A stretch of 62,915 nt of DNA, the filler included, from Candidatus Tectimicrobiota bacterium (lineage in GTDB: Bacteria; JACPSX01), in NCBI GenBank assembly GCA_016193065.1. It is 5 parts of 5 records of this genome, joined end to end, with 100 filler letters (N's around TTAATTAATTAA, not from the genome) between each part and the next. Parts side by side here need not be neighbours in the genome. Positions count along the whole stretch, not along the records: positions 1 to 6,012 come from JACPSX010000134.1; 4 more parts are not named here. One strand, 5' to 3'. Below, in pieces: positions 1,880 to 55,383 of the stretch (position 1 is the first letter of the stretch; the number at the start of each line of letters is the position of its first letter). The position numbers were made by a program, and so were the translations under genes. The notes under the pieces were generated by a model, which had not been told where the DNA came from, did not search any database, and saw only the letters and a program-made list of their open reading frames with translations.

Positions 1880-3049
1880 GTGGAACTCTCCTGCCCTCAG
1901 TGCGCCACTCGTTACCGAGCGAGCGAGGAAAAAATCCCCCCCGGAGGGGGGAAAGTCCGCTGCCCCAAATGCGAGGCCATGATCGTCATCGATCCTCAAA
2001 CGGTTGCCCCCGGTGCCCAGGAGTCCCTCGCAGAACCGGAAGGAAAGCCCCCGGAAGAGATTCTCTCCGAAGAGACTGCGGACACGGAGAGCGTCAGTGC
2101 CGAGCCAGGAGAAAGCGCTCAGGAAGTCCAGCCGGAAGGCGATGCCGTTGCCGTCGCACCGGATGTGGCGGGAGCTCCTTCGGCTGGGGCAGGCGAGGAG
2201 ACGGATTTCCTGTCCTCTTCTCTCGCGGAGCAAGAAGAGCAACAGGACGAAGCCGGAACGATCCCTGCGCCTCCCGCCACCGCGCAGGAAGAACCACGGG
2301 AAGAAGAGGGAGAGCCCTCCGAACCTCCCCTGGCAGTGCAGGAAGAAGGACAGAAAGCAGATAGTGTGTCCCTCTCCCTGGCGGAGGAGCTCCCCCCGGA
2401 AGAGCCAGCCCTGCGGCAGGAGCCTGAAGAAGAAAAAACGGGGCATACCCGCGCCGGGATGAGGAGGTGGGCGAAACGCTTCAAGGATCGACTCCCGCGC
2501 GGCGGCCGGATTCCGAGACCTCTTGGATTGGGCCTGGCCGCCGCTTTCCTGGCCGCTGTGGCAGTCATCCTGTGGCAGTCCGCGCCGACTCGCGGTCCCC
2601 AGGCGCCGGCCCAGAGGATGACATCTTCTCCGTCCGGCCAGCCTCCTGCTTCTTCCGTCCCTCCCAGCAGTCCCCAGCAGCCTTTGCCCCCGGGGAAAGA
2701 ACCGGCCCTCACCCAGCCTCCGGAATCCCTTCCTGTGACTCCCGCGGGTCCTCTCTATCCGCTGGAGCCGTTTCTGGTCCCCTTGACGACCGGGGCCAAA
2801 GAGGATCGCTTCCTGAAAGTGACCATGGCCCTGGAGCTCTCCAGCGGACAGGTCTCCCTCGAGCTTGACGACAGGCTGACCACGGTTCGAGAACAGGTCC
2901 TGGCGGTCTTGAATTCCCGGACTCTGTCCTCGTTTCTGAACCTGGAAGGCAAGAACCAGCTTCGCAGCGACCTGATCCGGTCCATAAACCAGCAACTGTC
3001 CACGGGCGCGGTTCGCAATCTTTACTTCACCGAGTTTATCGTTCTCTAG
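1880..3049 (+). CDS. Zinc-ribbon (MJ0042-finger-like) protein with acidic linker, TM helix and C-terminal FliL-like domain
   Basis: N-term CPQC...KVRCPKC; Glu/Pro-rich linker; TM LGLGLAAAFLAAVAVILW; C-term YPLEPFLVPL...RFLKVTMALE...EGKNQLRSDLIRSIN...VRNLYFTEFIV typical of FliL. Confidence 0.8.
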   Translation: MELSCPQCATRYRASEEKIPPGGGKVRCPKCEAMIVIDPQTVAPGAQESLAEPEGKPPEEILSEETADTESVSAEPGESAQEVQPEGDAVAVAPDVAGAPSAGAGEETDFLSSSLAEQEEQQDEAGTIPAPPATAQEEPREEEGEPSEPPLAVQEEGQKADSVSLSLAEELPPEEPALRQEPEEEKTGHTRAGMRRWAKRFKDRLPRGGRIPRPLGLGLAAAFLAAVAVILWQSAPTRGPQAPAQRMTSSPSGQPPASSVPPSSPQQPLPPGKEPALTQPPESLPVTPAGPLYPLEPFLVPLTTGAKEDRFLKVTMALELSSGQVSLELDDRLTTVREQVLAVLNSRTLSSFLNLEGKNQLRSDLIRSINQQLSTGAVRNLYFTEFIVL

Positions 3050-3069
3050 GCCGGGGAGGGGAGTTAAAG

Positions 3070-3096
3070 TTGCGAGGAGGGGATACCTGGTATAAT
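3070..3096 (+). promoter_or_regulatory. Putative sigma70 promoter with extended -10 (TG-N-TATAAT)
   Basis: TTGCGA at 3070-3075, TGG-TATAAT at 3088-3096, upstream of a purine-rich RBS and ATG 3120. Confidence 0.55.
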
Positions 3097-3119
3097 CTTA
3101 AGGAAGGAAAGGGGTAATC

Positions 3120-3278
3120 ATGTCTTCCCGGTTCGTCGAAATCGTTATTTACCTGATCCTGGCGTTTGTGTTTCTCATCCTGGGGCTCAACTCCGACCAG
3201 GGCAGCATCCAACTGCTCCTCTTCCTGCTGACGGCCCTTTTCTTCTTCGCCATGTTCCGGCCCCGGCAGAGCTCGTAA
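3120..3278 (+). CDS. Small (52 aa) two-helix membrane protein, not in the ORF track
   Basis: MSSRFVEIVIYLILAFVFLILGLNSDQGSIQLLLFLLTALFFFAMFRPRQSS*; preceded by AAGGAAGGAAAGGGG RBS and TATAAT. Confidence 0.65.
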   Translation: MSSRFVEIVIYLILAFVFLILGLNSDQGSIQLLLFLLTALFFFAMFRPRQSS

Positions 3279-3309
3279 TCGCGTGCGGCGAGAAGGCTGA
3301 AGAGATGCG

Positions 3310-3456
3310 AGACCGGGGTGCCCCTTGGGGCTCCAGTAAACTTTTGCACGAGGGGGCGATTTAGGATCGGTTGCTTTTCGCGTGCGGAGAGGTCAGGTCT
3401 CCGGGGGTGCGGCGCCTGCAAAACTTTAAGTCGCCCTACGGGGCACACCCGGTCTC
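3310..3456. repeat. Intergenic element bounded by imperfect inverted repeats, with partial copies at 32464-32501 and 52999-53143
   Basis: GAGACCGGG-GTGCCCC ... GGGGCAC-A-CCCGGTCTC; AAAACTwTAArTCGCCCTACGGGGCACACCCGGTCTC recurs at ~32465. Confidence 0.7.
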
Positions 3457-3478
3457 TTCTGGCAACCCCGTTAAGGTT

Positions 3479-3720
3479 GCCTGCGGGGGTTACCTTCTCG
3501 GAGGAGAAAGCACCGAGGGGACTGTCCTTCCGTCCGGAGCGAAACTGCCGGGAGCAGCGGGGGAACCCACCGGGAGCGGCCAGGGAAGGGAAACCGCGCA
3601 GCCAAGACGCGCTTGCAGATAGCTGAAGCATTTAACGGGGCGGTAGCGGAGGGTTCCCACCCTGGGCGCCCCGTAAGGGTCCGTTGCGGGAGGCGTGGAG
3701 CGTAGGGCGGAAGACAGTCA
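3479..3720 (+). ncRNA. Dispersed ~240-nt structured element, copy A (putative ncRNA or non-autonomous mobile element)
   Basis: Aligns end to end by eye with 28208-28450 (-) and 40017-40256 (+); nested inverted repeats with covariation. Confidence 0.7.
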
Positions 3721-3744
3721 CTTGCTACAAGTCCGTAATGGGTA

Positions 3745-3773
3745 TTGACAGAACGGGTCCGATCGGGTAATAG
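3745..3773 (+). promoter_or_regulatory. Putative sigma70 promoter for tRNA-Met/tilS/hpt
   Basis: TTGACA 3745-3750, 17-nt spacer, TAATAG 3768-3773, 13 nt before the tRNA. Confidence 0.45.
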
Positions 3774-3786
3774 GAAGAACCTTCGT

Positions 3787-3863
3787 GGCGGTGTAGCTCA
3801 GCTGGTTAGAGCATGCGGCTCATATCCGCAGTGTCCGGGGTTCAAGTCCCTGCACCGCCACCA
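3787..3863 (+). tRNA. tRNA-Met (CAU), most likely elongator
   Basis: Acceptor GGCGGTG/CACCGCC, D-arm TAGCTCAGCTGGTTAGAGC, anticodon arm TGCGG-CTCATAT-CCGCA, T-loop GTTCAAGTC, encoded CCA. Confidence 0.95.
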
Positions 3864-3879
3864 ACTCATCCTTAGGATC

Positions 3880-5307
3880 ATGCCATTCTCCGCGTTTCTG
3901 GAGAAAGTGTTCCGGACCATCACCCGCCATGGGCTTGTCGTCCGCGGCGACCGGGTCCTCGTGGCCGTCTCCGGCGGACCGGACTCCATGGCTTTGCTGG
4001 AAAGCCTCTACCTGCTGCGAGAAAGGCTCTCCATAAGCCTCTCCGTAGCCCATCTCGACCACGCGCTGCGCGGATCTGAATCTGCGAGAGACGCCCGTTT
4101 CGTGCAGTCCGAGGCAGAGAAGCGCGGGCTGCCTTTCGTTGGTGGAAAAGAAGACGTCATTGCCTTCCGCAAAACCCGGCGCTGCTCCCTTGAGGAGGCG
4201 GCCCGAGAAGTCCGCTACCGCTTTCTTCGGGACTCGGCCGCCTCTCTGGGAGCGCAACGGATCGCACTGGGACACACGGCCAGCGACCAGGCCGAAACGG
4301 TTCTCCTAAATCTCTTGCGGGGAAGCGGCCGCCGGGGGCTGGCCGGCATGCCGGCTGTCCGCCAGGGCGTCTGGATCCGTCCTCTGCTGAACTGCCTGCG
4401 AGCCGAGGTGGAGGACTTTCTGAAGGAGCAGGGAATCCCTTTTGTCCTGGATCCGACAAACGCACTGCGGGTGTACCGGAGAAACCGGATCCGGCACGAC
4501 CTCCTGCCGAAGATGGAAGAAGAGTTTGGTCCGGGCGTGACCCGGGCTTTGGCCCGCAGCGCAGAACTTTTGGCGAGGGAAGAAGAATTTCTGGAAGCCC
4601 GGGCCCGAGAGGCCCTAAGAGATGTGGCGCAGGAAAATTTCACTCGGGGAATCGCGCTGCGCCTGGAAAAGCTCCAACACTATCCTCTGCCAATTCGCAG
4701 CCGGGTCCTGCGCCTGGCCGCCGGAGAGGCAGGGCTGCTCGGGGCGCTGACGTTCAGGCAGGTGGAAAGTCTCCTGAATCTCGCCGGAGGCACGGATCCC
4801 AGCGGGGAAGTGGCCCTGCCCCGAGGCCTCAGGGCGCAGCGGGAGTACGGCCTCCTGCACATCACTGTGCCTGTAAACACGCCGGAGAACGTCGAGCCCT
4901 CCGAGCTGCCAATGCCGGGAGTGCTGGAACTCCCCTGGTGCCGGACTCGCCTGATCGTCTCCCTGGTGGAGAGAGGAACAACGGACTTATCCCAATTGAC
5001 CGCCATGGAGGCTCTCTTTGACGCCGAGGCGCTGGTCTACCCCTTACGAGTGAGAAATCGGGCTCCCGGAGACCGATTTGAGCCTCTGGGGGGACCCGGA
5101 GGGAAAAAGCTGAAAGAGTATTTCATCGACGAAAAGATTCCCCGCCGGCGGCGTGATTTCATCCCGCTGGTCCTTAGCGGGGAGCGCATCCTCTGGGTGG
5201 TCGGGCGCCGCCTCTCTTCCTGGGCTCGGCCGACCGGGAGAACCCGGCACCTGCTAAGGATCCGCGCCGAGATCATGGACACGGCAGTCTCAGGAGACGG
5301 GAAATGA
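3880..5307 (+). CDS. tilS: tRNA(Ile)-lysidine synthetase
   Basis: VAVSGGPDSMALL PP-loop, HLDHALRG, EEAAREVRY, GHTASDQAET, RNRIRH, C-terminal TilS_C; start moved to ATG 3880 downstream of the tRNA. Confidence 0.96.
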   Translation: MPFSAFLEKVFRTITRHGLVVRGDRVLVAVSGGPDSMALLESLYLLRERLSISLSVAHLDHALRGSESARDARFVQSEAEKRGLPFVGGKEDVIAFRKTRRCSLEEAAREVRYRFLRDSAASLGAQRIALGHTASDQAETVLLNLLRGSGRRGLAGMPAVRQGVWIRPLLNCLRAEVEDFLKEQGIPFVLDPTNALRVYRRNRIRHDLLPKMEEEFGPGVTRALARSAELLAREEEFLEARAREALRDVAQENFTRGIALRLEKLQHYPLPIRSRVLRLAAGEAGLLGALTFRQVESLLNLAGGTDPSGEVALPRGLRAQREYGLLHITVPVNTPENVEPSELPMPGVLELPWCRTRLIVSLVERGTTDLSQLTAMEALFDAEALVYPLRVRNRAPGDRFEPLGGPGGKKLKEYFIDEKIPRRRRDFIPLVLSGERILWVVGRRLSSWARPTGRTRHLLRIRAEIMDTAVSGDGK

Positions 5308-6012: not shown

Positions 6013-6112
6013 NNNNNNNNNNNNNNNNNNNNNNNNNNNNNNNNNNNNNNNNNNNNTTAATTAATTAANNNNNNNNNNNNNNNNNNNNNNNNNNNNNNNN
6101 NNNNNNNNNNNN
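6013..6112. other. Artificial contig-joining gap
   Basis: 100 nt of N with central TTAATTAATTAA six-frame stop linker. Confidence 0.97.
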
Positions 6113-12547: not shown

Positions 12548-12556
12548 ACAATGGAT

Positions 12557-12745
12557 GGACAGCCAGAGTGGCGGCCCCAAAAATATCGCGTATTCCGGAT
12601 ATCAAGAAGTTGGCCTTGTGTATCATGCAGTCCAGGATCGCATAGCGTTGGTTTTTTTTTGTCGGATCGGGGTGGAGGGACAGCCAGAGTGACGGCCCCA
12701 AGAATATCGAGTATTCCGGATATTAGAAAGTTGGCCTTGTGTATC
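12557..12745. repeat. Two imperfect 68-bp direct repeats (12557-12624, 12678-12745)
   Basis: GGACAGCCAGAGTGrCGGCCCCAArAATATCGmGTATTCCGGATAT...AAGTTGGCCTTGTGTATC twice, period 121 bp. Confidence 0.9.
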
Positions 12746-28109: not shown

Positions 28110-28207
28110 GCGCTGAAGGCCGGAGAAGCGCGGCGGCGCCGCTCTCCGAGGCGGCCTTCTGGCGGGGAGGACTGGCTTGTCCACCCCCAGTGCGGGTCCA
28201 TGGACAG

Positions 28208-28450
28208 GGGCTGACTTCCCGCCCTTCGCTTCACGCCTCCCGCAGCGACCCCTTCGGGGCGCCCAGGGTGGGAACCCTCCGCTACCGCCACGTTAAGTGT
28301 TCAGCTATCTGCCAGCAAGTCTAGGCTGCGCGGTTTCCCATCCCTGGCCGCTCCCGATGGGTGTCCCCGCTGCTCCCGGCAGTTGCGCTCAGGGCGGGAA
28401 AGTCAGCCCTCTCGGAGCCCTGCCTCCGAGGGGGTAGCCCCCGCAGGCGA
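28208..28450 (-). ncRNA. Dispersed ~240-nt structured element, copy B (ends at contig break)
   Basis: Reverse complement aligns with 3479-3720 and 40017-40256. Confidence 0.7.
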
Positions 28451-28550
28451 NNNNNNNNNNNNNNNNNNNNNNNNNNNNNNNNNNNNNNNNNNNNTTAATT
28501 AATTAANNNNNNNNNNNNNNNNNNNNNNNNNNNNNNNNNNNNNNNNNNNN
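28451..28550. other. Artificial contig-joining gap
   Basis: 100 N with TTAATTAATTAA linker. Confidence 0.97.
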
Positions 28551-32430: not shown

Positions 32431-32611
32431 GGCAAAAACGCAGGCCAGCAGGCAGAAGCCCTCCAAAACTATAAATCGCCCTACGGGGCACACCCGGTCT
32501 CCAAAAACCTCCATCACTCAGCTCTCAATCCCCTCATCAAGGTTGCGATCCTGGCAAGGTTCGGTTATAATTAAGCGCTATTTTATTTAAAGCCTGAGGA
32601 TAAAAGGATCT

Positions 32612-37463: not shown

Positions 37464-37751
37464 TTGAGAATCACGGACATCATCTGGAAAGAGCGCTTCG
37501 TCGAGAAGTTTTCAAGCAAACATCGTGTCGCAGTCGCGGAGGCAGAAGAAGTGCTCCGTTCCAGGCCGGTTGTTCGAAGAATGACCAAAGGAAGGGTACA
37601 CGGCGAGGATGTATACGCCGCTCTGGCGCAGATCCGTGGCGGCAGGTACTTGATTGTGTTTTTCATCAGGAAGAAACACGGCATGATATTGCCGATTTCA
37701 GCGCGAGACATGGACGGCTCTGAGAGGAGATATTATGCGAAACACAGATAA
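37464..37751 (+). CDS. BrnT-family toxin
   Basis: KH.V...EAEEV, GRYLIVFF, PISARDM...ERRYY. Confidence 0.85.
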   Translation: MRITDIIWKERFVEKFSSKHRVAVAEAEEVLRSRPVVRRMTKGRVHGEDVYAALAQIRGGRYLIVFFIRKKHGMILPISARDMDGSERRYYAKHR

Positions 37752-38004
37752 ACAAATTGATCCATTGCCAGAGGAGTTTGTCTCGGAGGATGAGGCCGCT
37801 GAGTTTTGGAACACTCACAGCATCACCGACTATGAAGAGTTTCTCGAACCGATGTCTCTCGATGTGGACCTGAAAAGGCGACACTTCGAAATAGAAATCG
37901 ATGAAGAGAGCTTTCTGGCGTTGCGTGCCAGCGCCAGGAAACATCGCAAGCCGGTGAAGCAACTCGCCAGCGAGTTCCTGAAAGAGAAACTTACAACTGG
38001 ATAA
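37735..38004 (+). CDS. Putative CopG/BrnA-type antitoxin
   Basis: PEEFVSEDEAAEFWNTHSITDY; overlaps the toxin gene; C-terminal RHH-like segment. Confidence 0.82.
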   Translation: MRNTDKQIDPLPEEFVSEDEAAEFWNTHSITDYEEFLEPMSLDVDLKRRHFEIEIDEESFLALRASARKHRKPVKQLASEFLKEKLTTG

Positions 38005-38151
38005 TAGCCGTTCACCAGGGTAGCCGGAAGGCCACCTCTTTTTCCTTGACTCCTGTCGCACGCCGGGATTATTCTCGTGCTACCTCAACGAAGCATGCAA
38101 TCGCAGTTTGCGCCGCAACACTCCCTGTTTGGCAAAAGGGAGGGCAAGGCC

Positions 38152-38439
38152 ATGGCGGCCTTGGGCAGTTCTCATTTTCACCCTACCACAGTGTCACTCC
38201 GCGGCCGGCAGCCAAAGCTGCTGGACCGGGTGCGCGAGGCAATCCGGACGCGGCACTACAGCTATAGGACCGAAAAGGCCTATATCCACTGGATCAAGCG
38301 CTTCCTCTTCTTTCAACAAGCGGCACCCGGCAGAGATGGGCGGGCCGGAGATCGCCACGTTTTTGTCCAGCTTGCGCGTCGCGTCAGCGCGTCCACCCAG
38401 AACCACGCGTTGAACGCCATTCTGAAGAACCGTTTATGA
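38152..38439 (+). pseudogene. Integron-integrase N-terminal (SAM-like) domain remnant, frameshifted and truncated
   Basis: KLLDRVREAIRTRHYSYRTEKAYIHWIKRF / NKRHPAEMGGPEIATFLS / VSASTQNHALNAIL split over two frames; no catalytic domain. Confidence 0.85.
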
Positions 38440-39398
38440 GCAAAGTGGAGCAGAACGTGATGTTCAAGAATTGCAAAGAGAAGTACTACCTGGAATGCTT
38501 ATGGAATGGCCTCGAATTCATCTATGAGCAAATACATGAGTTAGAGCAACGTCAAAGACAAGAGCTCTGCAAGAGATCTTCTGGCGAGGTATATGGCCTG
38601 ATCTTTCATGAGACCTGTGGAATGCCCGAACACCACATGATCATCAATTATTTCGTGTGGTACGCATGCTCATTGTTCGCCTTCCTAAAGCTATTCAGTA
38701 AGGCATATTCTCTAGGCGATGACTGGAAAGAAATATTTCCGGACGAGGAGATATGGCGACACAAGGTTGCAGCCCATACCGCGTATACAGACCCGCGACG
38801 CGAAGAAGGCGGATTTATCTCTGCCACAACGACCCAAACGTTGCCTCGGGGACAGGTGATGTGGATATTCCGTGAGCTAATCCAAGCCTTCCGGGAAATA
38901 CGAACCGACCACAAGTACCTACAGGCGCAGGCCAAGAAGGAGCTTGAGGATCTTCGTCAGAACGGTCTTCCGGAAGGTTATCTGCGTCATCCAAAGGAAG
39001 CCATTCGGCGATGGGGCCAATTGGCTTTTGATGCATGGTTCACTAGGCAAGAACCGAAGTATAGGGTCTGTAGCGGGTATCCCCCAGATTGGGAATGGAG
39101 AAAATTAGTTTTGCTGAAGCAGCAGAATTATAAGTGTTCCCGGTGTAGCGGTGATATCTATCGAGTGAGACAGAACGTACGAAACCGGGAGAAGGTCCTC
39201 GAGAGCAGATCCGGCAAGGAGGTCCTACTTCCGAAGGGCCTTCACCTCCATCACATCACACCACTCTCTCAGGGAGGCGATCACTCCTTTGCAAACCTCA
39301 CTCTCTTGTGTCCGCGCTGCCATTCATTTGAGCATCCACACAACGCACGCCTTAAGCCTTACAGGACACGAAGGCCATCCACGCGCAAGATGCCCTAG
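38436..39398 (+). CDS. Protein with C-terminal HNH endonuclease domain (possibly two fused genes)
   Basis: YKCSRC...LHLHHITPLSQGGDHSFANLTLLCPRCHSFEH; visibly lower GC than flanks. Confidence 0.8.
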   Translation: MSKVEQNVMFKNCKEKYYLECLWNGLEFIYEQIHELEQRQRQELCKRSSGEVYGLIFHETCGMPEHHMIINYFVWYACSLFAFLKLFSKAYSLGDDWKEIFPDEEIWRHKVAAHTAYTDPRREEGGFISATTTQTLPRGQVMWIFRELIQAFREIRTDHKYLQAQAKKELEDLRQNGLPEGYLRHPKEAIRRWGQLAFDAWFTRQEPKYRVCSGYPPDWEWRKLVLLKQQNYKCSRCSGDIYRVRQNVRNREKVLESRSGKEVLLPKGLHLHHITPLSQGGDHSFANLTLLCPRCHSFEHPHNARLKPYRTRRPSTRKMP

Positions 39399-39583: not shown

Positions 39584-39916
39584 GCAAGGATTGCCCGAGT
39601 GGTCGTGCCGGATTTCCCGCATCACGTGGTGCAGCGTGGCGTGATGCAGGATAGATGTGTTTTTTTATCGTGGTGCCGCGTCAGAGCAAGTCGCTTTCAG
39701 CCACGTTTGGAGAGGCTCATCGCAGGTACACGCGTGTGGTTAATTTCCGCGAAGGCTGGCGAGGTCATCTGTGGCAGGAGCGTTTCCACTCTTACCCGAT
39801 GGACGAACGTCATTTGCTTGCCGCCGTTCGGTATGTGGAGATGAATCCGGTTCGTGCGGGGTTGGTACAGAAACCAGAAGACTGGGAGTGGTCGAGTGCG
39901 CGGTATCATTTAAGGC
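39584..39916 (+). pseudogene. REP-associated tyrosine transposase (RAYT/Y1) remnant with internal deletion
   Basis: ARIARVVVPDFPHHVVQRG, then in another frame GHLWQERFHS...RYVEMNPVRAGLV..PEDWEWSSA; HUH segment absent. Confidence 0.85.
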
Positions 39917-40016
39917 NNNNNNNNNNNNNNNNNNNNNNNNNNNNNNNNNNNNNNNNNNNNTTAATTAATTAANNNNNNNNNNNNNNNNNNNNNNNNNNNN
40001 NNNNNNNNNNNNNNNN
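39917..40016. other. Artificial contig-joining gap
   Basis: 100 N with TTAATTAATTAA linker. Confidence 0.97.
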
Positions 40017-40256
40017 CGCCTGCGGGGGTCGCCCCCTCGGAGGCAGGGCTCCGAGAGGGCTGACTTTCCCGCCCTGAGCGCAACTGCCGGAGCAACGGGG
40101 ACCCACCGGGAGCGGGCGGGGAAGGGAAACCGCGCAGCCTGGACTTGCTTGCAGATAGCTCAATACTTAACGTGGCGGTAGCGGAGGGCTCCCAACCCGC
40201 CCGCCTCGGAAGGGTCGTTGCGAGAGGCCGTGGAGCGAAGGGCGGGAAGGCGGCCC
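40017..40256 (+). ncRNA. Dispersed ~240-nt structured element, copy C (starts at contig break)
   Basis: Aligns with copies A and B; compensatory changes in stems. Confidence 0.7.
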
Positions 40257-40437
40257 GTTTACTGGACCCGCAGAAACTGGGTGTGGGCGCGCAAATGAGG
40301 GGCTTGACAAGGAATCTTAAAGTCCGTAAGGTCAACCTCTAAGGGTTCATATGTTCAGGATGAACTTGAGGGTTCCTATGGAGAGGCAGGGTGGTTTCGC
40401 GGGAGCCGCGGTTCAGGCCGGTTCGGGAAAGACAGGA

Positions 40438-40686
40438 ATGAACAGCAAGAAGTGGGGGATTCTGGAGGCGCGCATTGGCGAGATGCTGGCCCGGGTCCGG
40501 AACCTGCATCAGAAGGTGGCGGTCTTGGAGTCCGAAGCGGGTGGACTCAGGCGGGAATTGGAGAATAGCGCCAGGGAAATTCAGGGCTTGCGGGAACGCA
40601 TTGGAGCCTTGATGGAAGAGCGCCAGGTGATCCGCACGAGAGTCTCCACTGTGCTGAAGAGCCTCTCCAAATGGTCGCTTTTGTAA
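40438..40686 (+). CDS. zapB: Coiled-coil protein, ZapB-like
   Basis: LEARIGEML...ERQVIRTRVSTVLKSL heptad pattern, directly upstream of zapA. Confidence 0.65.
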   Translation: MNSKKWGILEARIGEMLARVRNLHQKVAVLESEAGGLRRELENSAREIQGLRERIGALMEERQVIRTRVSTVLKSLSKWSLL

Positions 40687-40707
40687 CTGGAGGATCGGGA
40701 CCAGCCG

Positions 40708-41004
40708 ATGAAGAATGCGATTGAGGTGCAGATTTGTGGGCGGCGATATGTGTTGAAGGGGGATGCGACCCCCGAACACGCGGGAAGGCTGGCGGCCTAT
40801 GTGGATGAACAAATGCGCAAGCTCTCCGCGTCGGCGGGTGCGGTGTCATCCCTGAACGTCGCCGTCCTGGCGGCCCTTAACATCGCCGAAGAACTCTTCA
40901 AGGTAAGAGAAGAAAAGCAGCTCCTGGAAGAAACTTACGAAAAGAAGGCAAGCAACCTGATCGATCTCCTGTCCCGGGAGATGGACCCCGATCCGAAATT
41001 GTAA
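40708..41004 (+). CDS. zapA: Cell division protein ZapA
   Basis: EVQICGRRYVL, LAAYVDEQMR, AVLAALNIAEEL. Confidence 0.93.
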   Translation: MKNAIEVQICGRRYVLKGDATPEHAGRLAAYVDEQMRKLSASAGAVSSLNVAVLAALNIAEELFKVREEKQLLEETYEKKASNLIDLLSREMDPDPKL

Positions 41005-41107
41005 TCCCAGGCAAGTTTCTCTGGCTGAGCCCCGTAATTGCTCTGCATGGTACGGGGTGATTGTCATTTCAAGGATTCTGGCCTTGAATCTCTTTTCGGA
41101 TCGGGGT
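40985..41107. mobile_element. Putative MITE-like element with 14-bp terminal inverted repeats
   Basis: ACCCCGATCCGAAA ... TTTCGGATCGGGGT; same ends at 62710-62853. Confidence 0.55.
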
Positions 41108-41340
41108 GGATGGCTCTTCCTGAGGAATCCCCGGATATTTTGCCCGAGTTCCACGACAGGCTGTCCCCTTTTTTGACTTGATTTTTCCTGGCTCAAGAAT
41201 TAGGATCGTCGATGAGATTATATGCGCGTTATCGCAGCATGGCAGTTGCTGGCAAAGGTTAGAGGACAGAGGAATCTCAACGGTGGCAGTTCCCAACGGG
41301 ATTAGAGTAAGTTCGGCGGAGGGGAAAACAGGGAGTCTTT

Positions 41341-41551
41341 TCTCTTGGATCGGTTTTGCGATTTTGGGGCTTCTCGGCTACAGCGGCCCTTCTCGCAGAT
41401 TCCGACGTGCACCCTTGATCACGATGTGGCCCCGCATTGGTACCGGTTGCCGGGTCGAGCTCTGTGGGGCAGGCACCCACCTTGCGGGTACCCGGAGCTC
41501 GGATCTGTGTGGGGAAGCATTCCCACCACCCCCTCGCCGATTCCAAAGAGA
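41341..41551 (+). ncRNA. ssrS: Candidate 6S RNA
   Basis: Located between zapA and rny (usual ssrS locus); closing stem TCTCTTGGATCGG/CCGATTCCAAAGAGA, inner stem TTCTCGCAGATTCCGA/TCGGATCTGTGTGGGGAA, GGCACCCACCT motif; boundaries and strand approximate. Confidence 0.45.
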
Positions 41552-41842
41552 TTTTGTCTCCACGACCGGCTGGAGTCGTCAGGAAAGTTTCGGAGTTGCC
41601 TCGGGACGCACGACTTCGCCGCCGGACGGTTTGCCTATCACTCCCTTTGGGGCCCGTTTCTTGAATTTCTGCCGCCTTCGGTTCCAGATCTGCGCCTGAG
41701 ATCCTGCTGCCTCTCTTCCTGCGCCCAGTGACTTTCTTTATCCCGGCCGGAGCTGCTTGATCCGGGAGCTCGGGGAGGCCCCTGTCTCGTAGGGCTTTCC
41801 GGACCAAGTGAGGTGGCTCGGGTCCGAGAGGAGGTGGGTACT

Positions 41843-43408
41843 TTGGAAAACTCGATTCTATGGATCATCGCAAGCGCCCTCTTGGGCATCTTGGGATTTC
41901 TTGGCGGGGTGCTGTTCAGGAGATTTCTGGTCGAGGCCAGGCTCGGGTCTGTTCAGGAAAAAACCCGCACGCTGCTTGCAGAAAGCGAGCACGAGGCCGA
42001 GAGGAAAGTTAAGGAAGCTTCTATAGAAGCCAAGGAGATTGTCCTGCGCGCCCGGGCGGAGTTCGATCAGGAGACCAAACAACGCCGCTCCGAGTTGCAA
42101 CGGATGGAGCATCGACTCATCCAGAAAGAGGAGATGCTCGACCGCAAGATGGACCTCCTGGACCGCAAGGAAAAAGACTTCATCAACAAAGAACGCAAAC
42201 TTCAGGAACGAGAAACGAGGATTTCACATCAGGAACGGAAGGCCCAGAGCATTCTTGAAGAGCAGATCCGGAAATTGGAGCAGATTTCCGGCCTGACTTC
42301 CCAGCAGGCGAAAGAGGAACTGGTGACGAAGCTCGTGGATGAGGCCCGGGTCGAGGCGGCAGAAAAGGTGAAACGAATCGAGGAAGAAACCCGGGAACTG
42401 TCCAGCCGCAAGGCTCGCGAAATCCTCAGTCTGGCCATTCAGCGCTACGCGGCCGATCACGTGGCCGAGACCACCGTTTCGGTGGTGGACCTCCCCAACG
42501 ATGAGATGAAGGGGCGCATTATCGGCCGGGAAGGGCGCAACATCCGGGCCCTGGAGATGGCCACGGGTGTGGACCTGATCATCGATGACACCCCGGAGGC
42601 CGTGATTATCTCCTGCTTCGACCCCATCCGCAGGGAGATTTGCCGTCAAGCTTTGCAACGTCTGGTGGCCGACGGCCGCATCCATCCCGGGCGGATCGAG
42701 GAAGTGGTCAACAAGGTAAAAAAGGAGATCGAAAACGGTTTTCGGGAAGACGGCGAGCAGGCGATGTTCGAGCTGGGGCTTTCGGGAATCCACGTGGAGC
42801 TCTTGAAGCTTCTGGGACGCCTGAAATTCCGCACCAGCTATTCCCAGAACGTGCTGCAGCATTCCAAGGAGGTTGCTTACCTGTGCGGCCTGCTGGCTGC
42901 CGAGTTGGATCTCGACCCGAAGCTCGCGAAACGGGCCGGTCTCTTTCACGATATTGGCAAGGCGGTTGACCAGCAGATGGAAGGGTCCCATATCCAGGTG
43001 GGCATCGAGATAGCCAAGCGCTACGGGGAACCCCCGGAGGTGATCAACGCCATTGCCTCCCATCACGAGGATGTGGAGGCTTCCTGCATCGAAGCGGTCC
43101 TCGTGGACGCCGCCGATGCCCTGTCGGCGGCCCGTCCCGGGGCGCGGCGGGAAATGCTGGAGAGCTACGTAAAGCGTCTGGCCAAGCTGGAGGAGATCGG
43201 CGAATCGTTTAAAGGGGTGGCCAAGACCTATGCGATTCAGGCCGGCCGGGAGATCCGGGTGATGGTCGAGCCCGAGCAGATCAAGGACGCCGAGGCCCTT
43301 TTCCTGGCCAAGGACATTGCCAAGAAGATCAAGCAGGAAATGGCTTTCCCCGGTGAGATCCGGGTGACGGTAATCCGGGAGGTGCGCGCGGTGGAATATG
43401 CCCGATGA
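41843..43408 (+). CDS. rny: Ribonuclease Y
   Basis: N-terminal TM, coiled coil, [18 protein letters not shown] motif [28 protein letters not shown] before TTG 41843. Confidence 0.97.
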
Positions 43409-44216
43409 CCTGAAGATCCTTTTTATCGGGGACATTGTCGGCAAAATTGGGCGCCGCATGGTGGCCGAGTGTCTGCCGCTTCTGGTCAAGGAACACGGAA
43501 TCGACCTGTGCATCGCCAACTGTGAGAACGCGGCCGGCGGCTTCGGGATCACGCCCAAGGTGGCCGATCAGCTCTTTAGTTGCGGGGTCCACCTGCTGAC
43601 CTCGGGAAATCACATCTGGGATAAAGCGGAGGGGATCCAGTTTTTGGAACAGGACAGCCGGATGTTGCGCCCCGCCAACTATCCTCCGGATACGCCCGGG
43701 AGGGGTGTGGCTGTGGTGGAGGCCCCCGGCAGGGAGCGGGTGGGGGTCTTGAACCTCTGCGGCCGGGTCTTTCTGGAAGCCATCGACTGCCCCTTCCGTG
43801 CGGCCGATCGCGAGATCGCCAAACTGAGAACCGAGACACGGATCATCTTTGTTGACATGCATGGGGAAGCCACTTCGGAAAAGGTGGCCATGGGCTGGTA
43901 TCTGGATGGCAGGGTCAGCGCGGTGGTGGGCACCCACACCCACGTGCAGACGGCGGATGAGAGGGTCTTACCCGGAGGAACCGCCTACATCACGGATGTG
44001 GGAATGACGGGGCCCGCGGATTCCATTATCGGCATCCGCAAGGAGCTGATCATCGAGAGGTTTCTCACCCACCTCCCGCGCAAATTCGAGACCGCCCGCG
44101 GGGAGGGGCAGTTCAACGCCGTCGTCGTCCAGGTTCACCGATCCACCGGAGTCGCAACCCACATCAGCCGATCTTATATCCGCTCGGCCTGGTTGAGCCA
44201 AGGACAGGAGGATTGA
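43398..44216 (+). CDS. ymdB: YmdB-like (TIGR00282) metallophosphoesterase
   Basis: [39 protein letters not shown]. Confidence 0.95.
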
Positions 44217-52928: not shown

Positions 52929-52998
52929 CCCTGCGGGTGTGCACTTTGCTCTCCCCGGGTTTTCATTGAGAAGGTGGGGGGAAACCAGAGAAATCCTC

Positions 52999-53172
52999 GG
53001 GGCGCCCCCTTGGGCTCCCGGACAGCTTGCGACAGGGATTTAATGACCGGATCGATTGGCTCTTCGCCTCGCAACCTGTCAGGTCGCCTGCGGGGGCTGC
53101 CCCTCGGATTGACAGGATTTCGTGGGGCGGCGCCCGCAAAACTCTGCAGGGGCACCCCTATGTGGGTGCCCT
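52999..53172. repeat. Composite intergenic repeat (homologous to 3315-3428, contains 5' tip of the structured element and a REP-like palindrome)
   Basis: TCGCCTGCGGGGGCTGCCCCTCGGA 53084-53108; GCGGCGCCCGCAAAACT; GGGCACCC-CTATGT-GGGTGCCC. Confidence 0.6.
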
Positions 53173-55283: not shown

Positions 55284-55383
55284 NNNNNNNNNNNNNNNNN
55301 NNNNNNNNNNNNNNNNNNNNNNNNNNNTTAATTAATTAANNNNNNNNNNNNNNNNNNNNNNNNNNNNNNNNNNNNNNNNNNNN
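55284..55383. other. Artificial contig-joining gap
   Basis: 100 N with TTAATTAATTAA linker. Confidence 0.97.

Follow-up and report, generated by a model that had tools for sequence, protein, structure and literature searches.

The stretch at positions 3479–3720 raises the question of whether a long hairpin-forming sequence between ordinary chromosomal genes is an RNA gene or a mobile repeat. A first-pass annotation had placed three copies of it here (A, 3479–3720, + strand; B, 28208–28450, − strand; C, 40017–40256, + strand). The window, that is, the whole stretch of DNA analysed (62,915 bases), is made up of five draft contigs, with linkers of 100 bases (N, TTAATTAATTAA, N) between them at 6013–6112, 28451–28550, 39917–40016 and 55284–55383, so order and distance across linkers carry no meaning. 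Its genes are those of an ordinary chromosome, including mutS, a FliL-domain gene, a tRNA-CAU followed by tilS, zapB-zapA, rny and ymdB, and further metG, two-component systems and multihaem cytochromes. RNase Y of the host is 91% identical to one ENA protein and 59–64% identical to proteins named Nitrospinota, and the best full-length RNase Y identity among 120 Nitrospinota genomes was 60–62%.

All three copies lie at the sites first given for them, where their sequences were checked, each on a different contig. Identity was 85.5% over 241 nt for A and B, 81.6% over 234 nt for A and C, and 86.1% over 274 nt for B and C, with the last BLAST match extending to 28181 and 40286. While the coordinates were correct, the extents were too short: B and C are both 5'-truncated at the same base by contig breaks (linkers 28451–28550 and 39917–40016), and homology overruns both ends. 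Beyond the closing stem it continues for ~30–35 nt in A, B, C and a fourth copy, D (alignment columns 260–300). Upstream of 3479 it goes on in A and in other copies from public runs (variants at 3460, 3469 and 3472), and a loose contig end occurs at 3497 in run X3. Copy D was found on an unrelated JGI metagenome contig, is 83–88% identical to A–C and is cut inside the hairpin by the contig end; the alignment took in three full copies and one partial copy. The main body of each copy is an imperfect hairpin of about 200 nt (the rod), located in A at 3520–3719 (+ strand), where 3520–3535 pairs with 3705–3719 as the closing stem, internal loops are purine-rich and the apical domain spans approximately 3588–3650. 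BLAST identity and the alifold structure place the rod at 28208–28409 (− strand) in B and 40057–40256 (+ strand) in C. The rod is followed by a conserved 3' tail that can be aligned across all four copies (A–D), located at 3720–3755 in A (+ strand), 28175–28207 in B (− strand; BLAST match to C and alignment) and 40257–40290 in C (+ strand; BLAST and alignment). The start of contig 3 (28551–28600, − strand) also ends in letters like those of the rod 3' end and contains a GGAAACCGC..GCGG arrangement. It might be a relative of the rod that has been shortened and cut, one that nhmmer did not report at E values up to 10. A 73-nt, AT-richer sequence present as two direct copies (12552–12624 and 12673–12745; 90% identical, 121 nt apart) bears no relation to the rod.

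Repeats in a draft genome may be created by assembly or binning, or may reflect chance likeness between GC-rich spacers, and it is true that this is a draft MAG with N linkers in which two copies stand at contig ends. However, the copies lie within otherwise unique contigs beside housekeeping genes, they share 82–88% identity across 160–270 nt (D included) with E values of 1e-39 to 1e-86, and further members turn up both in an independent JGI assembly and among Logan contigs from two studies. An artefact is therefore almost certainly not the explanation. That three of four copies (B, C and D) end a contig is expected of a repeat left unresolved in assembly. The existence of further copies, on which the first-pass annotation had staked its proposal of a family, is borne out by D in the JGI contig and by the groundwater Logan contigs.

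The extent of this repetition became apparent in groundwater metagenome runs, where the locus was found. Logan contigs from four groundwater runs were placed on positions 3000–4000 at ≥80% likeness. Summed contig depth in run X1 was 23.7 for the unique flank, compared with 3151 (3544–3577), 5821 (3578–3611) and 2418 (3646–3679) in the rod core, and dropped to 132 and then 50 past the tail of copy A. The 3578–3611 bin reached 802 in X2 and 151 in X3 against flanks of 4.3 and 3.25. The core-to-flank ratio varied between runs from 46 to 245; these summed depths do not give a copy number, and other organisms may contribute to them. Each sample contained at least about twenty different variants, and T, the commoner base of the family at position 3587, was carried by 23, 19 and 8 contigs in X1, X2 and X3, respectively. 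Total rod abundance was at least that of the adjoining tRNA gene (2440 in X1). In X5, which belongs to a second study, the tRNA stood at 1300–1950 versus 9–32 for the rod, indicating that the family is lineage-specific and not universal; the X5 copies (records 25, 27 and 28) are ~90% alike. A two-anchor pattern scan of metagenome contigs yielded seven stretches, one of them real (copy D), while the four stretches in genome contigs were all chance and viral contigs gave none. Two further scans of viral contigs produced 25 stretches, none real by nhmmer, and then zero. Plasmids yielded no blastn match on the distant setting, and the rod as a DNA query against the 120 Nitrospinota genomes gave one 25-nt chance match.

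As had been claimed, no ORF is conserved among the copies, which differ by 1- and 2-nt indels and contain stops in all sense frames; a protein query made from the antisense frame that is open in C matched none of 35 candidates. Known RNA families were not recovered either. At gathering score, an Rfam 15 scan of the whole window returned tRNA alone, and on the copies no family reached gathering score or E < 0.1. The copies stayed below the gathering thresholds of the covariance models for 6S, SRP, RNase P, tmRNA, riboswitch and ribozyme families, in agreement with the first reading of them as none of tRNA, SRP, RNase P, tmRNA or a riboswitch, for which there was no credible match. The Rfam collection includes models for the HEARO and IS605-orfB motifs. 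The best sub-threshold match on the copies (E up to 10) was to CRISPR-DR15, with 19.6 bits against a threshold of 36. Weak full-length matches to the ZMP-ZTP riboswitch model fell at the same 5'-arm place in C (40070–40151, + strand; 13.7 bits) and B (28321–28396, − strand; 17.0 bits), far under the threshold of 39, and the HDV ribozyme model matched corresponding places in B and C with 15 and 17.9 bits (threshold 50); both were taken as chance, for ZMP-ZTP in GC-rich sequence, and rejected. Next to copy C lies a conserved cluster (40351–44216) of a zapB-like gene, zapA, a 173-aa ORF, rny and ymdB. The 6S RNA adjoins zapA in some bacteria; the Rfam 15 scan of the window found no 6S match near this cluster at gathering score.

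The stems quoted in the first-pass annotation are present in the copies, and the RNAalifold structure of the three copies has 80 pairs, of which 12 show double changes that are compensatory. Its further claim that differences between copies preserve pairing also held, with 13 pairs changed on both sides compared with 5.3±1.7 in 500 shuffles (0/500 reached 13), although the structure tested was derived from the same three sequences and this covariation support is therefore not decisive. Sliding the 3' partners by one to three columns, as a control, left 0–1 double-changed pairs. Most double changes fall in two places, the outer closing stem (helix 2, with 9 of 23 pairs) and the inner stem that differs in C. 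Mismatches had been described as G-U wobbles on one strand only, and we counted 14 G·T or T·G cells versus a single A·C cell in the + sense, indicating that one strand is under selection. On the alifold structure, 95.8% of 240 cells were paired on the sense strand versus 90.4% on the opposite strand, the latter figure being arithmetic from the cell counts.

Such a pattern could arise if the rod worked, in cis or in trans, as a structured RNA that binds a protein or is targeted by RNase III and alters the stability or expression of neighbouring transcripts. The host would then keep the copies, and the link to repetitive extragenic palindromic (REP) units described below would be secondary, reflecting shared intergenic space or REPs that carried an RNA module. 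Besides the excess of G·U over A·C, several features favour this explanation. Stems covary around an invariant apical domain and invariant purine loops (GGGA facing GGGA, and GGAGCG on both strands beside the closing stem), and unpaired rod residues are nearly all A or G in the + sense. Conservation peaks in the apical domain, which comprises ~45 nt and is not palindromic, and in the purine loops, and is lowest in the outer stem; in the alignment, the scaffold is kept and the flanks and two apical patches are variable. Three of four copies are co-oriented with the gene immediately downstream (tRNA/tilS, zapB and an M24 peptidase gene). The rod RNAs also fold better than shuffled sequences, at −129.7 kcal/mol for A (+ strand; z −2.87), −161.9 kcal/mol for B (z −5.12) and −150.8 kcal/mol for C (z −3.38). 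Yet the reverse strand of copy A folds with the same z score (−116.0 kcal/mol; z −2.90), no sigma-70-type promoter was found in 3050–3900, and the two terminator-like sites in that interval are on the opposite strand, inside the rod. No RNA run contained the element, the six on offer having shares of 0.07 and no bearing on expression. The lack of any Rfam match also counts against an RNA gene, and we know of no bacterial non-coding RNA gene family this abundant, save those tied to mobile elements. A host-maintained RNA thus appears somewhat unlikely, while remaining the most serious competitor to the reading developed below. Downstream of copy A, a promoter-like pair of TTGACA (3745–3750) and TAATAG (3768–3773), separated by 17 nt, lies partly within the tail. 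It is followed by the tRNA with anticodon CAU (3787–3860) directly upstream of the lysidine synthase gene tilS (3880–5307); this tRNA is probably tRNA-Ile2 beside its own modifying enzyme.

A different kind of evidence comes from the 5' end of the copies, where the first 26–28 nt of each match the right arm (53079–53110) of an imperfect inverted doublet at 52992–53110. This leader is a REP-type palindrome, located in A at 3477–3504 (+ strand; match to the 53079–53110 arm with a score of 18, alifold helix 1), in B at 28424–28450 (− strand; 24/26 identical to 53083–53108 with one gap, cut by the contig end with the linker from 28451) and in C at 40017–40043 (+ strand; match to the doublet unit, cut by the contig start at the linker boundary). 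The first-pass annotation had described a 5' hairpin here (3497–3517 in A); the region is indeed conserved, but it opens with a 26-nt REP-type palindromic unit that overlaps the hairpin. A REP profile built without the leaders scored them weakly (E 4–9), and we base the link between leader and REP on the direct match to the 53079–53110 unit and on architecture. A helix between leader and tail closes the minimum free energy fold of C and is absent from that of B.

Aside from the three rod leaders, REP units were found in the window at 3309–3339, 3426–3456, 32471–32501, 52992–53022 and 53079–53110. They are short, palindromic, intergenic and present in high copy, as expected of REPs. The first two form a REPIN-like inverted doublet (3309–3456), recognised by self reverse-complement alignment and nhmmer matches, which ends 20 nt upstream of copy A and represents a second high-copy family; its REP bins had depths of about 3200 and 3070 in X1 versus 24 in the flank (summed depth, not copy number). 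The last two form the doublet at 52992–53110, which lacks a rod although its right arm is the rod-leader unit. The unit at 32471–32501 (+ strand; repeat family D7) stands singly and is 93% identical to 3415–3456. The order of doublet plus rod recurs in another copy, on an X5 contig (record 25) spanning 3309–3558, and one X1 contig rejoins the rod 3' end to a REP unit (joint 3701>3409). Following the rod-less doublet, positions 53112–53170 share homology with the central and right-hand portions of the doublet that precedes copy A, reading GCGGCGCC.GCAAAACT and continuing with a GGGCACCC/GGGTGCCC hairpin, which shows that repeat modules have been reshuffled from locus to locus.

The window also holds a broken gene for a REP-associated tyrosine transposase (RAYT) at 39599–39915 (+ strand), a remnant that had been noticed in the first reading. 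The NCBIfam model NF047646 matches 39655–39915 with an E value of 1.7e-13 and 50.6 bits, which is under its 80-bit cut-off, over profile positions 65–146 of 146; the N-terminal part is in a different frame, and the gene is cut by the end of contig 3. Pfam gave no match on the ORFs of the remnant. Beside it, a small island of mobile- or defence-type genes (37464–39398) closes contig 3, consisting of a BrnT/BrnA-type toxin-antitoxin pair (37464–38004), an integrase N-terminal SAM-like domain fragment (38077–38439) and, adjoining the remnant region, a 320-aa protein with a C-terminal HNH nuclease motif (38436–39398). The integrase fragment led us to consider the copies as integron attC sites, a candidate that was rejected as they lie among housekeeping genes and not in a cassette array. 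The integrase fragment and the HNH protein were the only mobile-type Pfam matches among 48 window ORFs, and no other transposase, reverse transcriptase or RNA-guided nuclease was detected among them.

Taken with abundance in metagenomes and three contig breaks, the fusion to a REP unit, the REP doublets and the RAYT remnant lead us to favour the mobile repeat over the RNA gene, the two options between which the first-pass annotation had left the choice; its view that the family is undescribed stands, given no match in Rfam 15 and the existence of more copies. Overall, the repeat looks like a new kind of small parasitic repeat and not an ordinary RNA gene. Our preferred reading, held with moderate confidence, is that the family is a REP-linked element confined to this lineage and non-autonomous, which a RAYT-type enzyme moves and which spreads in the form of a folded single strand. 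Dispersal among unrelated housekeeping genes, abundance and mosaics with REP doublets place it in the broad class of REP, BIME and REPIN repeats. That it moves, by which enzyme and as what kind of single strand are inferences drawn here. The element would be ~290 nt long, comprising a 26–28-nt REP-type palindrome, a small alternative hairpin, the 200-nt rod and a ~35-nt conserved 3' tail, in that order. A tyrosine (HUH/Y1) transposase of the REP-associated type would recognise the REP unit and move the element in trans as a folded single strand, and selection on this strand would keep the rod paired. The selected strand may be a single-stranded DNA intermediate, a read-through transcript or both; the bias of 14 G·T to one A·C fits a strand-specific single-strand intermediate. 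Four observations count against this reading. The rod arms are not REPs, and each unit has one clear REP. The central conservation peak is what would be expected of a functional RNA and the reverse of what REPINs show. The sole RAYT seen is broken. Lastly, the contig joints in the groundwater runs revealed neither empty sites nor target duplications nor excision products.

Comparison with known repeats helps to locate the element further. Like REPIN/RAYT systems, it is a high-copy intergenic repeat with a REP-type unit, and true doublets and a broken RAYT-type gene occur in the same window. Genomes with such systems carry a cognate RAYT gene, as a rule with its own REPs on either side. REPIN spacers, as described in PMC3116915, keep a hairpin through compensatory changes, and the fold is thought there to matter in single-stranded DNA or mRNA; the rod hairpin is likewise kept by compensatory changes, in a strand-specific manner that suits single-stranded DNA or RNA. 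However, one REPIN type in that source consists of two conserved 16-mers with 71 bp between them, whereas the rod hairpin is 200 nt long. Both doublets, 3309–3456 and 52992–53110, have two inverted REPs. In the rod unit, by contrast, a single clear REP stands at the 5' end, the arms are not copies of a REP, and the tail offers just 6–7 nt complementary to the leader; hence it is not a canonical REPIN. Moreover, the ends are the conserved part of REPINs in PMC3116915, whereas the rod is best conserved in its centre, around a non-palindromic apical domain.

Enterobacterial BIMEs are mosaic clusters in which REPs are combined with other fixed motifs (PMC3333891). The modularity found here is similar, with the same REP units, linkers and extra modules in varied combinations, for example, doublet, leader and rod (copy A), a doublet holding the leader unit without a rod (52992–53110), and a rod followed by a REP (the X1 contig). 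Linker motifs in BIMEs are short, whereas the extra module in this case, a covarying hairpin, is 200 nt long and bears a conserved loop domain. ERIC, Correia/NEMIS, RUP and BOX sequences are MITE-like repeats that form hairpins, and they resemble the element in being non-coding, intergenic, 100–250 nt long, high in copy, often co-oriented with genes and able to form long hairpins if transcribed. Repeats of this type have terminal inverted repeats that are conserved in sequence, together with target duplications. The outer stem of the rod, in contrast, is its least conserved part and covaries, as evident from the double changes in helix 2; B, C and D are cut on the 5' side, where a flanking duplication would lie.

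The rod might instead be a module of non-coding RNA that belongs to a different mobile element and is either used or carried in trans. Candidates are a REP-targeting RNA like the bridge or seek RNAs of IS110/IS1111 elements, a selfish small RNA like ssr9 of ISPpu9, or a palindrome-associated element related to the omega RNAs of IS200/IS605. A precedent is provided by ISPpu9, an IS110-family element of Pseudomonas putida reported in PMC12288879 to insert into REPs, whose ssr9 small RNA module also occurs alone and forms its own circles, spreading by means of the IS transposase. The rod resembles ssr9, as portrayed in that source, in being a non-coding module beside REPs, found with and without other modules and proposed to spread on a borrowed transposase. 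Direct adjacency of rods to a REP unit and a conserved scaffold with variable flanks and two variable apical patches would also suit a borrowed module. Nonetheless, the window has no IS110-type gene and the rod is present in far more copies than ssr9, to which, as far as Rfam shows, it is unrelated in sequence. A DEDD recombinase, TnpB, IscB and TnpA were all absent among the 48 window ORFs scanned, and Rfam held no relevant match for an omega RNA, nor any family at gathering score or E < 0.1. Bridge or seek RNAs are encoded beside a DEDD recombinase and have loops that pair with the target and the element's ends, but no match of ≥7 nt between flank and inner loop recurred in A, B and C, a weak test given that true ends are unsettled. 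The 9-nt complementarity of 3466–3474 with 3632–3640 in copy A is not common to the other copies, which carry 3469 C>T, lack 2 nt at 3472 and, in all contigs, have 3638 G>T, with no compensation; it was rejected as a pseudoknot or guide. In addition, the leader resembles a whole REP and not a split one. On balance, a module borrowed from such an element is quite improbable.

A further possibility joins parts of these explanations. The rod could be a new class of structured RNA, with a ~200-nt helix, near-symmetric purine loops and a ~45-nt apical domain, that has been multiplied through REP/RAYT machinery. We consider this unlikely, though less so than a borrowed module. An RNA of this kind might represent a selfish RNA gene, or else it might act as a guide or decoy for a protein partner. 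If true, a deep-branching groundwater lineage that is still uncultured would possess a structured RNA of a new class.

Returning to the REP-linked mobile element that we prefer, the repeat is an interspersed one that is unusual in the size of its hairpin and in its conserved non-palindromic apical domain, with no match among curated RNA families and no relative in the plasmids, viral contigs and 120 Nitrospinota genomes searched. REP- and REPIN-type repeats have been studied mostly in Proteobacteria. Here, a REP-type unit is joined to a covarying hairpin of far greater size, whose tip bears a conserved loop domain, in an unusual host whose RNase Y is ~60% identical to that of the nearest of the 120 Nitrospinota genomes. 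Assemblies of this lineage are also fragmented by the repeat, with a contig ending at three of the four copies observed. If the rod acts as an RNA, it would constitute an unusually abundant bacterial RNA family; if it is mobile, the element would widen what RAYT-type systems may carry.
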